Source: a virus (lineage: Duplodnaviria > Heunggongvirae > Uroviricota > Caudoviricetes). From it: 6,963 nt of DNA. Positions 532-6,947 of the stretch are shown one piece after another. Each line of letters opens with the position of its first letter. Positions within the stretch are counted from its first letter, which is position 1. A program made the position numbers and the translations under genes. The notes below the pieces were generated by a model, which saw nothing but the letters and a program-made list of their open reading frames with translations, made no database searches and was not told the DNA's origin. Location: IMG/VR virus record IMGVR_UViG_2740892431_000001. One strand, written 5' to 3'.

Positions 532-543
532 AAAAAATCCCGT

Positions 544-564
544 AAAAAAAGCCGCACAGGCGGC
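544..564 (-). terminator. Short GC hairpin (GCCGC-acag-GCGGC) followed by a T-run on the minus strand, in the D-E intergenic spacer; possible weak terminator or RNA structural element
   Basis: Plus strand 544..550 is aaaaaaa (a U-run on the minus-strand transcript) and 551..564 is gccgcacaggcggc, a perfect 5-bp inverted repeat with a 4-nt loop. The stem is short, so this is a weak call. Confidence 0.25.
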
Positions 565-585
565 CTTTAGTGATGAAGGGTAAAG

Positions 586-918
586 TTAAACGATGCTGAT
601 TGCCGTTCCGGCAAACGCGGTCCGTTTTTTCGTCTCGTCGCTGGCAGCCTCCGGCCAGAGCACATCCTCATAACGGAACGTGCCGGACTTGTAGAACGTC
701 AGCGTGGTGCTGGTCTGGTCAGCTGCAACAGCCAGAATGCCAACGGCAGCACCGTCGGTGGTGCCATCCCACGCAACCAGCTTACGGGTGGCGGTGTCAA
801 GCATCAGCGGAGTCATTGCAGGCGCTTTCGCACTCAATCCGCCGGGCGCGGTTGCGGTATGAGCCGGGTCACTGTTGCCCAGCGGCTGGTAATGGGTAAA
901 GGTTTCTTTGCTCGTCAT
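586..918 (-). CDS. D: Head decoration protein gpD (110 aa)
   Basis: ORF 586..924; the likely true start is the second ATG at 918..916 ([12 protein letters not shown]...), with stop TAA at 588..586. The protein is recognisable as lambda gpD, and there are 9 nt between the C stop and the D start as in lambda. Confidence 0.9.
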
Positions 919-927
919 AAACATCCC

Positions 928-1533
928 TTACACTGGTGTGTTCAGCAAATCGTTAACGGCATCAGATGCCGGGTTACCTGCAGCCAGTGGTGCCGGTGCA
1001 CCCTGCATCAGACGATCCAGCGCAGTGTCACTGCGCGCCTGTGCACTCTGTGGTGCTGCGGCCAGAATGCGGCGGGCCGTTTCCACGGTCATTCCGGGGG
1101 TTTCTGCCAGCACGCGCGCCTGTTCTTCGCGTCCGTGAGCCTCCTCACAGTTGAGGATCCCCATAATGCGGCTGTTTTCTGCCGCAACCGCTGCGGTGAT
1201 CTGCGCGTTCACGTCCGGCTGCGCCGCGCTGGCGTTTTCGCCCTCCGTCGCTTGCACCACGTCAGTAACGTCAGCCTGCGAAGCGGTGGCTGAAACAGTT
1301 GTTGATTGAGTCTCTTTGGTCATTCGCCCTCCTGAGAGACGGGATTTACGTGCATCCAGTGCATCACGCATGACGGTGATCGCATCGGTGCTGTTAACAA
1401 GTTCATCAGCCAGTCCGGCATCAATGGCCTCCTGACCGCTGTACACTGCAGCCTCGGTATCCAGCACAGCCTGCACGGACAGGCCGGTATATGCCGACAC
1501 CTTCTGCGCAAACATCCGGCGGGTTGCATCCAT
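928..1533 (-). CDS. Nu3: Capsid scaffolding protein gpNu3 (201 aa), translated from an internal in-frame start within the C reading frame
   Basis: ATG at 1533..1531 gives MDATRRMFAQKVSAYTGLSVQ... through to the shared stop at 930..928. In lambda Nu3 is the in-frame C-terminal part of the C ORF. It lies downstream of all four duplications and so is intact. Confidence 0.8.
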   Translation of the reverse strand: MDATRRMFAQKVSAYTGLSVQAVLDTEAAVYSGQEAIDAGLADELVNSTDAITVMRDALDARKSRLSGGRMTKETQSTTVSATASQADVTDVVQATEGENASAAQPDVNAQITAAVAAENSRIMGILNCEEAHGREEQARVLAETPGMTVETARRILAAAPQSAQARSDTALDRLMQGAPAPLAAGNPASDAVNDLLNTPV

Positions 1534-1729
1534 CCGGGACTGCAGTGTCTCCCGGACGTCATCCGGAAGATGGCTGTAGGGGTTGCCATCCACCTTATGG
1601 CTGCCGCTGTAAATCAGCGTGATTTCCACGCCCTGTTTCTCCAGCGCAGCACCGTAATTACTGTGAGCCATCATGACGCCGATGGAGCCTGTCCGGGCGG
1701 TCTGCGTGACCAGACGCCGGGAGGCGGCA

Positions 1730-1905
1730 CTGGCAAGCAGCTGACCTGCGCTGCAGTTCATGTCATTGGCCAGCGCCCATACCGGCTTTATGTCACGCAC
1801 ACGGGCGATGATGTCAAGCTGGCAAGCAGCTGACCTGCACTGCAGTTCATGTCGTTGGCCAGCGCCCATACCGGTTTTATGTCACGCACACGGGCGATGA
1901 TGTCA
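1730..1905. repeat. Imperfect tandem duplication, 2 x 89 bp
   Basis: Unit at about 1730..1816 is repeated at about 1819..1905 (for example ggcaagcagctgacctgc at 1732 and 1821; gatgatgtca ending at 1816 and 1905). There are 3 mismatches. The period of 89 is not a multiple of 3. Both copies encode DIIARVRDIKPVWALANDMNCSAGQLLAS. Confidence 0.9.
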
Positions 1906-2511: not shown

Positions 2512-6212
<3,701 letters not shown>

Positions 6213-6238
<26 letters not shown>

Positions 6239-6758
6239 TCAGCAACCCCGGTATCAGTTCATCCAGCGCGGCTGCTTTGTTCATGGCTTTGATGATATCC
6301 CGTTTCAGGAAATCAACATGTCGGTTTTCCAGTTCCGGAAAACGCCGCTGCACCGACAGGGGGATCCCGTCGAGAATACTGGCAATTTCACCTGCGATCC
6401 GCGACAACACGAAAGTACAGAATGCGGTTTCCACCACTTCAGCGGAGTCTCTGGCATTCTTCAGTTCCTGTGCGTCGGCCTGCGCACGCGTAAGTCGGTG
6501 GCGTTCGTACTCAATAGTCCCTGGCTGGAGATCTGCCTCGCTGGCCTGCCGCAGTTCTTCAACCTCCCGGCGCAGCTTTTCGTTCTCAATTTCAGCATCC
6601 CTTTCGGCATACCATTTTATGACGGCGGCAGAGTCATAAAGCACCTCATTACCCTTGCCACCGCCTCGCAGAACGGGCATTCCCTGTTCCTGCCAGTTCT
6701 GAATGGTACGGATACTCGCACCGAAAATGTCAGCCAGCTGCTTTTTGTTGACTTCCAT
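6213..6758 (-). CDS. Nu1: Terminase small subunit gpNu1 (181 aa; cosB-binding subunit)
   Basis: ORF 6213..6758 (MEVNKKQLADIFGASIRTIQNWQEQGMPVLRGGGKGNEVLYDSAAVIKWYAERD...) is recognisable as lambda Nu1. ATG at 6758..6756, stop TAA at 6215..6213. Confidence 0.95.
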
Positions 6759-6782: not shown

Positions 6783-6894
6783 AGAAAGGAAACGACAGAG
6801 GCCAAAAAGCTCGCTTTCAGCACCTGTCGTTTCCTTTCTTTTCAGGGGGTATTTTAAATAAAAACATTAAGTTACGACGAAGAAGAACGGAAAC
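6783..6894 (-). promoter_or_regulatory. cosB: cosB: the three gpNu1 binding elements R1 (6783..6794), R2 (6828..6839) and R3 (6883..6894)
   Basis: Plus strand has agaaaggaaacg at 6783..6794, cgtttcctttct at 6828..6839 and agaacggaaacg at 6883..6894. These are the lambda R-site 12-mers (CGTTTCC(T/G)TTCT), with R2 inverted relative to R1 and R3, at lambda-like spacing upstream of Nu1. Confidence 0.85.
6846..6880. promoter_or_regulatory. AT-rich segment between R3 and R2, where the IHF site I1 of cosB sits in lambda
   Basis: gtattttaaataaaaacattaagttacgacg is strongly AT-rich and lies between R2 and R3. The exact IHF core cannot be fixed without a motif scan. Confidence 0.45.
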
Positions 6895-6935: not shown

Positions 6936-6947
6936 AGGTCGCCGCCC
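6936..6947. other. cosN: cosN: the 12-nt cohesive-end sequence (GGGCGGCGACCT on the minus strand), here joined to right-end sequence
   Basis: Plus strand 6936..6947 is aggtcgccgccc, the reverse complement of the lambda left-end 12-mer. It is followed at 6948..6963 by cgtaacctgtcggatc, which reverse-complements to a sequence ending ...ACAGGTTACG, my recollection of the lambda right terminus. Confidence 0.85.

Follow-up and report, generated by a model that had tools for sequence, protein, structure and literature searches.

Gene C, which encodes the head protease of lambda-type phages, carries in the DNA studied here an 89-bp tandem repeat across the segment proposed to hold the catalytic serine, and the reading frame changes between the two copies. 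The question raised by this locus is whether the repeat arose in a phage genome, where it would have broken the protease gene, or whether it was made when the sequence was assembled.

The repeats in gene C and the serine/lysine dyad

The window, i.e. the whole stretch of 6,963 nt that was analyzed, represents the left arm of a lambda-type genome on the minus strand. It contains Nu1 (6213-6758), A (4313-6238), W (4110-4316), the portal gene B (2512-4113), gene C for the S49 head protease with the nested Nu3 (928-2531 as written in the window) and D (586-924), all on the minus strand; of E, only the start lies inside the window. Gene order (Nu1-A-W-B-C/Nu3-D-E) and strand are shared with bacteriophage lambda, and the DNA identity to many lambdoid phages and E. 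coli prophages amounts to 97-99%. Positions 6936-6947 match exactly the reverse complement of the pattern AGGTCGCCGCCC, which we take to be the 12-nt cohesive end of lambda. Since the window continues for 16 bases past 6936-6947, it does not stem from a virion end; the DNA was integrated, circular or concatemeric. Between this putative cos site and the start of Nu1 an inverted repeat is found (6783-6839; 25-nt arms, 84% complementary, 7-nt spacer), which is presumably part of the cosB/terminase-binding region.

The 89-bp duplication that had been described for gene C is present in the sequence, with copies at 1730-1816 and 1819-1905. They are identical at 84/87 positions with a start-to-start spacing of 89, the mismatches being 1750/1839, 1765/1854 and 1786/1875, and the TRF score of 331 is far above chance. 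Both copies encode ...NDMNCSAGQLLAS; their minus-strand translation reads DIIARVRDIKPVWALANDMNCSAGQLLAS. The claimed frame shift is literally correct as well. The ORF at 1788-2159 holds the copy 1819-1905 and ends in ...QLLASLTSSPVCVT at a stop at 1788, and the ORF at 928-1869 holds the copy 1730-1816 in frame with the rest of C/Nu3.

The repeat does not stand alone. Further tandem repeats, overlooked in the preliminary description, occur in the 5' half of the same gene with periods of 57 (1920-2031), 65 (2095-2223) and 67 (2253-2388), and a mini-repeat of 6 nt at 2246-2257, which appears as an insertion in BLAST, shows the same construction. The total gain compared to every natural relative is 284 nt (89+57+65+6+67). 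As written, gene C is broken into four ORFs (2316-2666, 2156-2338, 1788-2159 and 928-1869). Removal of the 284 extra nt gives a gene of 1,320 nt coding for 439 aa, and the corresponding gene of the reference is annotated as S49 family peptidase of 439 aa. This reference, L001 (NZ_OZ547117.1), is the best-matching complete E. coli record, and all reference coordinates given below refer to it. From these findings and the analysis of the joins described below we conclude that the split into four ORFs is not a property of the phage.

The preliminary assignment of the catalytic serine was borne out by alignment. PF01343 (Peptidase_S49) matched residues 150-297 of the reference gpC with 150.3 bits (cut-off 24.9) and the window ORF 928-1869 with 151.2 bits; TIGR00706 SppA_dom gave 119 bits on gpC, under the equivalog cut-off. 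The serine of NCSAG has number 166 in the 439-aa gpC. In a phmmer comparison of gpC 81-298 with the B. subtilis SppA structures 3rst/4kwb (E ~1e-21), Ser166 paired with the serine of the SppA AASGG motif at chain index 92, and Lys218 paired with chain index 144, which is Ala in the crystallized K199A chains. The position of K199A gives a numbering offset of 55, so that the aligned SppA serine is residue 147. We take Ser147 to be the nucleophile of SppA, and the NCSAG serine would accordingly lie on it, in agreement with the position suggested for the gpC nucleophile. A Ser-Lys dyad is documented for SppA (PMC9360617), and the active-site change K199A inactivates the B. subtilis enzyme (PMC7568657).

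The preliminary description had placed the catalytic serine within 1730-1905, and both Ser166 codons are found there, at 1750-1752 (AGC, first copy) and 1839-1841 (AGT, second copy). This codon is polymorphic in nature (AGT in 66/82 alleles, AGC in 16/82), and the window copies carry one form each. The Lys218 codon AAG (1594-1596, minus strand) is present as a single copy outside the repeats, and Lys218 is the predicted general base of the Ser/Lys dyad. Judged by alignment, Ser166 and Lys218 of gpC occupy the positions of the S49 Ser/Lys dyad, which is a modest and already known result. Active-site work on gpC was reportedly done by Medina in 2010; our literature search for gpC Ser166 or S166A returned nothing relevant.

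Anatomy of the five joins

Aligned to the reference, the window consists of collinear pieces, each stepping back on the reference, and five joins are located within 1729-2384. The pieces are P1 (window 532-1816, reference 4033-5317), P2 (1818-1974, 5230-5386), P3 (1976-2157, 5331-5512), P4a (2159-2250, 5449-5540), P4b (2252-2317, 5536-5601) and P5 (2319-6963, 5536-10180). One A stands between the pieces at each join, at 1817, 1975, 2158, 2251 and 2318. At 5/5 joins the next piece begins on a base differing from the previous piece, and at 4/5 joins the previous piece stops exactly 30 nt past the last difference, with the exception of join 4. The copies, all on the minus strand, can be assigned to two haplotypes, H1 (L001-like) and H2 (L083/L087-like).

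At join 1, the first copy (1729-1816, reference 5230-5317) is H1 and identical to L001, and its end corresponds to the last variant (1786) plus 30. The separator A1817 is untemplated and fits neither flank of any natural allele; the 31 novel 31-mers starting at 1787-1817 have only this base in common. The second copy (1818-1905, again reference 5230-5317) is H2 and starts on the variant G1818. Its differences at 1818, 1839, 1854 and 1875 are third-position synonymous and show the L083 states, which occur in 51, 66, 64 and 33 of 82 natural alleles, respectively.

Join 2 (1919-2031, period 57) follows the same pattern, with H1 at 1919-1974 (reference 5331-5386) ending 30 nt past the last difference, A1975, and H2 at 1976-2031. 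The base T1976 was found in 4 IMG/VR contigs, confirming the prediction of the model that it is a real SNP; only A1975 is therefore untemplated at this join. At join 3 (2094-2222, period 65) the order is reversed: H2 at 2094-2157 (reference 5449-5512) is followed by A2158 and H1 at 2159-2222, the first difference falls on the first base, and the distance from the last difference to the end is 30. Join 4 (2246-2256) comprises only 5 nt of H1 (2246-2250, reference 5536-5540) and A2251, after which H2 restarts at reference 5536 with T2252. A T at reference 5536 is the common natural allele (78/82), and the 6 extra bases of this join occur in no complete E. coli genome among the matches listed. 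Join 5 (2252-2384, period 67) is formed by H2 at 2252-2317 (reference 5536-5601), A2318, and H1 at 2319-2384 leading into P5; here the end again lies 30 nt past the last difference. The A at joins 3 and 5 could instead be templated or a natural SNP.

In simulated random duplications both boundary conditions together were obtained with P = 7.9e-4 per join, corresponding to ~4e-13 for four joins; the boundary model was picked after the data were seen, and the margin is very large nonetheless. A description with 2-nt fillers (AG, AT) and a natural 6-nt insertion was dropped when G1818 and T1976 turned out to be SNPs of natural alleles, and with these two bases explained a single-A separator accounts for all five joins. 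An additional A was also noted in the A-run at 525-531, a T7 on the gene strand shortly before the E start codon; in L001 this run is 1 base shorter. The A at 531 was rejected as a sixth separator, and the run is regarded as an ordinary homopolymer polymorphism because its length is the majority one among natural alleles.

Allelic identity of the copies and search for the joins elsewhere

One copy per join (H1) is identical to L001. When the H2 copies are concatenated, 18/19 variant sites (reference 5230-5571) match L083, L084, L087-L091, L093 and L094. The piece 1819-1974 has 100% identity to some natural E. coli alleles, the piece 1977-2158 has 100% identity to natural alleles other than those, and the piece 1976-2157 is found exactly in L083-L086. 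In comparison with 82 natural alleles, the copy differences at joins 1-3 are without exception synonymous at third codon positions, and all except T1976 segregate in this panel. A single locus of the 82, L053 (IMGVR_UViG_2563366941_000007), failed a simple check of C-gene length and stops.

The overlaps were collapsed in three ways, each of which gave 6,679 nt, 284 nt shorter than the window, and an intact C ORF of 439 aa. In either haplotype the real gpC is most probably an intact 439-aa S49 protease with Ser166 and Lys218. Compared to L087 (CP164702.1) and L094 (CP164189.1) the collapsed window differs at 16-18 sites, nearly all within 2159-2611; outside this range 1-3 mismatches per ~6.2 kb remain. 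This near-identity indicates that the variant copies belong to the backbone haplotype of the window, H2, and the second haplotype H1 is seen only across ~1729-2611. Within P5 the haplotype switches, with 2319-2611 being L001-like and 2674 onward L087-like (differences from L087 at 2391, 2493, 2498, 2605, 2608 and 2611). Either the two haplotypes have been combined in a chimeric contig, or the second haplotype is a mosaic of natural origin.

The only window 31-mers missing from 96 natural loci are those across the five joins and those containing the private SNPs 2264 and 3966. The bases at 2264 and 3966 occur in none of the 96 loci compared; sequencing errors could account for them as well as private SNPs. 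In the H2 copy, the change D67G is partly due to G2264. The P4b block equals L083 except for one base, and a P4b-specific 35-mer had no match in IMG/VR. The stretch 2262-2290 (gpC residues 60-67) is a short hypervariable N-terminal patch with the natural non-synonymous changes A60T, S64V, V65G and D67G; natural variation elsewhere in the 5' portion of the gene that was examined is almost entirely synonymous.

The repeats themselves were searched for in several collections. The best 50 matches listed, from 93 records of phages and 3,286 of E. coli, all cover the 1,101-nt query with 817 nt. The IMG/VR relatives (80/80) gave an uninterrupted alignment of 1,317 nt, with no repeats, and all ten of ten loci coding for the exact portal protein of the window have an adjoining 439-aa S49 gene. 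A 30-mer from join 1 had 0 matches in public genome, viral and metagenome contigs. When 88 nt spanning join 1 were compared with 5,426 complete E. coli genomes, only two-piece matches with swapped halves were obtained, and an exact protein look-up of the literal ORFs 1788-2159 and 928-1869 returned no record.

A truncated N-terminal gpC fragment of 71 aa is, in turn, on record for 18 contigs. The six of these that were listed (L097-L102) are all independent NCBI drafts, and each of them stops at window 2320, a single base away from where P5 begins and at the C/T polymorphism of reference 5536. This position is a recurrent assembly-graph fork in E. coli with several lambdoid prophages; other assemblers halt at this fork, and in the window its branches are written in series. 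A real case of such multiple copies, which confuse the assembly of short reads, is LR898874.1. This single complete E. coli genome contains two prophages (L090 at 2.64 Mb and L091 at 3.79 Mb), whose Nu1-to-E regions have identical mismatch lists compared to the collapsed window.

Origin of the doubled segments and comparison with known systems

The 89-bp repeat is most probably an assembly artefact caused by two lambdoid haplotypes in the sample, and not a biological duplication, because its copies are different natural alleles, an untemplated A stands between them, and the boundaries are set at SNP + 30 nt. The same features speak against a real duplication that broke the protease gene, as the preliminary description had implied. 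The sample would have held two closely related lambdoid haplotypes, present as two prophages in one genome or in two strains. Clusters of SNPs between H1 and H2 in the 5' half of C would then form bubbles in a de Bruijn graph with k=31, in which a branch, spelled after the shared prefix, would begin with the first variant base and reach 30 nt beyond the last one. Normally one branch is chosen; at four or five consecutive bubbles both would have been written in series, with one placeholder base (for example N) between them that is now read as A. Join-spanning 31-mers cannot come from a de Bruijn graph of reads, so that a post-graph step must have concatenated the pieces. We infer the k=31 graph origin, the role of the A as placeholder and the software step from the geometry of the joins, and reads crossing the joins would not be expected.

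Some details count against this assembly origin, among them the need for such a post-graph step and the other possible readings of the A at joins 3 and 5. Join 4 does not follow the rule of 30 nt, its aborted branch being 5 nt only. The H1/H2 differences at reference 5392, 5608, 5710/5715 and 5822-5828 are written once only, which means that the doubling was not applied to every bubble. G2264 in the H2 copy is absent from all natural alleles examined. Overlap-trimmed unitig gluing, single-N scaffolders, bubble-caller output and simplitig or superstring representations were considered as the responsible step, and none of them fits all details.

A different non-biological origin, such as the concatenation of nodes or paths of a pangenome or variant graph, the output of a bubble caller or a synthetic sequence, is improbable, if slightly less so than the biological alternatives. 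The geometry needs nothing more than a two-haplotype graph with k=31 and the writing of both branches with a placeholder, and the short pieces (66-182 nt) are under the usual contig-length cut-offs. Nothing in the sequence, however, tells such an origin from an artefact of an assembler or scaffolder. The biological consequence would be the same, namely that no real duplication exists.

Repeated template switching or gene conversion between co-resident lambdoid prophages (FoSTeS/MMBIR-like), with back-steps and 1-nt insertions, is very improbable. The copies do represent two different natural haplotypes, there are genomes in which two prophages have this head region in common (LR898874.1 with L090 and L091), and template-switch junctions can hold short untemplated insertions. 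Five switches would nevertheless be required in 660 bp, each on a polymorphic base and all inserting the same A, with four ends falling exactly 30 nt past the last polymorphism (P ~4e-13), and the joins are found in no other record. We know of no molecular process that senses SNP positions in such a way; k-mer graphs track them by construction. If true, such a burst of template switches would inactivate gpC and spare Nu3 and all neighbouring genes.

Just as little credence can be given to real serial tandem duplications, by slippage or unequal exchange, that inactivated C in a decaying defective prophage and whose copies diverged afterwards. Head-to-tail copies are truly present in the sequence, the net gain of 284 nt shifts the frame and yields four ORFs as expected of a pseudogene, and E. 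coli often carries cryptic lambdoid prophages (3,272/5,426 genomes match). Divergence in a decaying gene is at odds with differences at joins 1-3 that are synonymous and, apart from T1976, natural in the 82-allele panel, and with variant copies that rebuild one natural haplotype at 18/19 sites. Elsewhere the 6.7-kb window is intact and near-identical to functional-looking prophages, so no general decay is visible. Moreover, the joins show an untemplated A and no microhomology, their boundaries follow SNPs + 30 nt, and the repeats occur in no database record examined. Duplication in situ followed by decay, as well as RecA/MEPS-type recombination as the source of the 30 nt, were rejected in view of the starts on SNPs and the constant A.

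An annotator who took the window literally would see a defective prophage whose head protease is frameshifted and fragmented, and the repeat might be taken for a mutation at the catalytic serine. The evidence indicates that the genes of the underlying phages are normal. In practice the finding is of diagnostic use: a copy starting on a SNP, a preceding copy ending k-1 nt past the last SNP, one placeholder base and different natural alleles form an easily recognized signature that can flag false duplications and false pseudogenes where a sample holds two near-identical prophages or strains.

With respect to known proteases, gpC has the Ser-Lys dyad positions in common with SppA (B. subtilis 3rst/4kwb; E. 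coli protease IV 3bez/3bf0). SppA is a membrane-anchored signal-peptide peptidase, whereas gpC is a soluble protease of phage assembly that carries a scaffold domain (Nu3) at its C-terminus, and gpC stays under the NCBIfam SppA equivalog cut-offs. The collapsed ORF of the window resembles lambda gpC, with 439 aa and PF01343 at residues 150-297; as written, the gene differs from it by its four ORFs owing to the 284 extra nt.

Slippage tandem duplications share with the window the head-to-tail repeat, a period that is not a multiple of three and the resulting frameshift. When a tandem duplication is genuine, its copies are identical at first and meet directly or at microhomology, and its boundaries bear no relation to SNPs in the population. 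The copies in the window are different alleles that are not derived from one another, carrying pre-existing polymorphisms of two natural haplotypes; they are separated by an untemplated A instead of abutting or meeting at microhomology, and their boundaries depend on SNPs.

The closest counterparts are false ('heterotype') duplications, in which both haplotypes or paralogues are kept in tandem in assemblies, as reportedly described by Kelley & Salzberg in 2010 and Ko et al. in 2022. As in those cases, the two copies in the window are two alleles, each representing a distinct natural haplotype, the boundaries are set by variants and k-mers, and the duplication is gone on haplotype collapse, which restores the gene; a spurious frameshift and gene split and two near-identical sequences in the sample are further common features. 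The window differs by its tiny scale (5-88 nt per join), its serial nature (five joins in 660 bp) and its exact boundaries. Such a small, serial and exact pattern, running from the first SNP to the last SNP + 30 and followed by one A, points towards a graph-writing step with k=31 and not towards scaffolding at the level of haplotigs.
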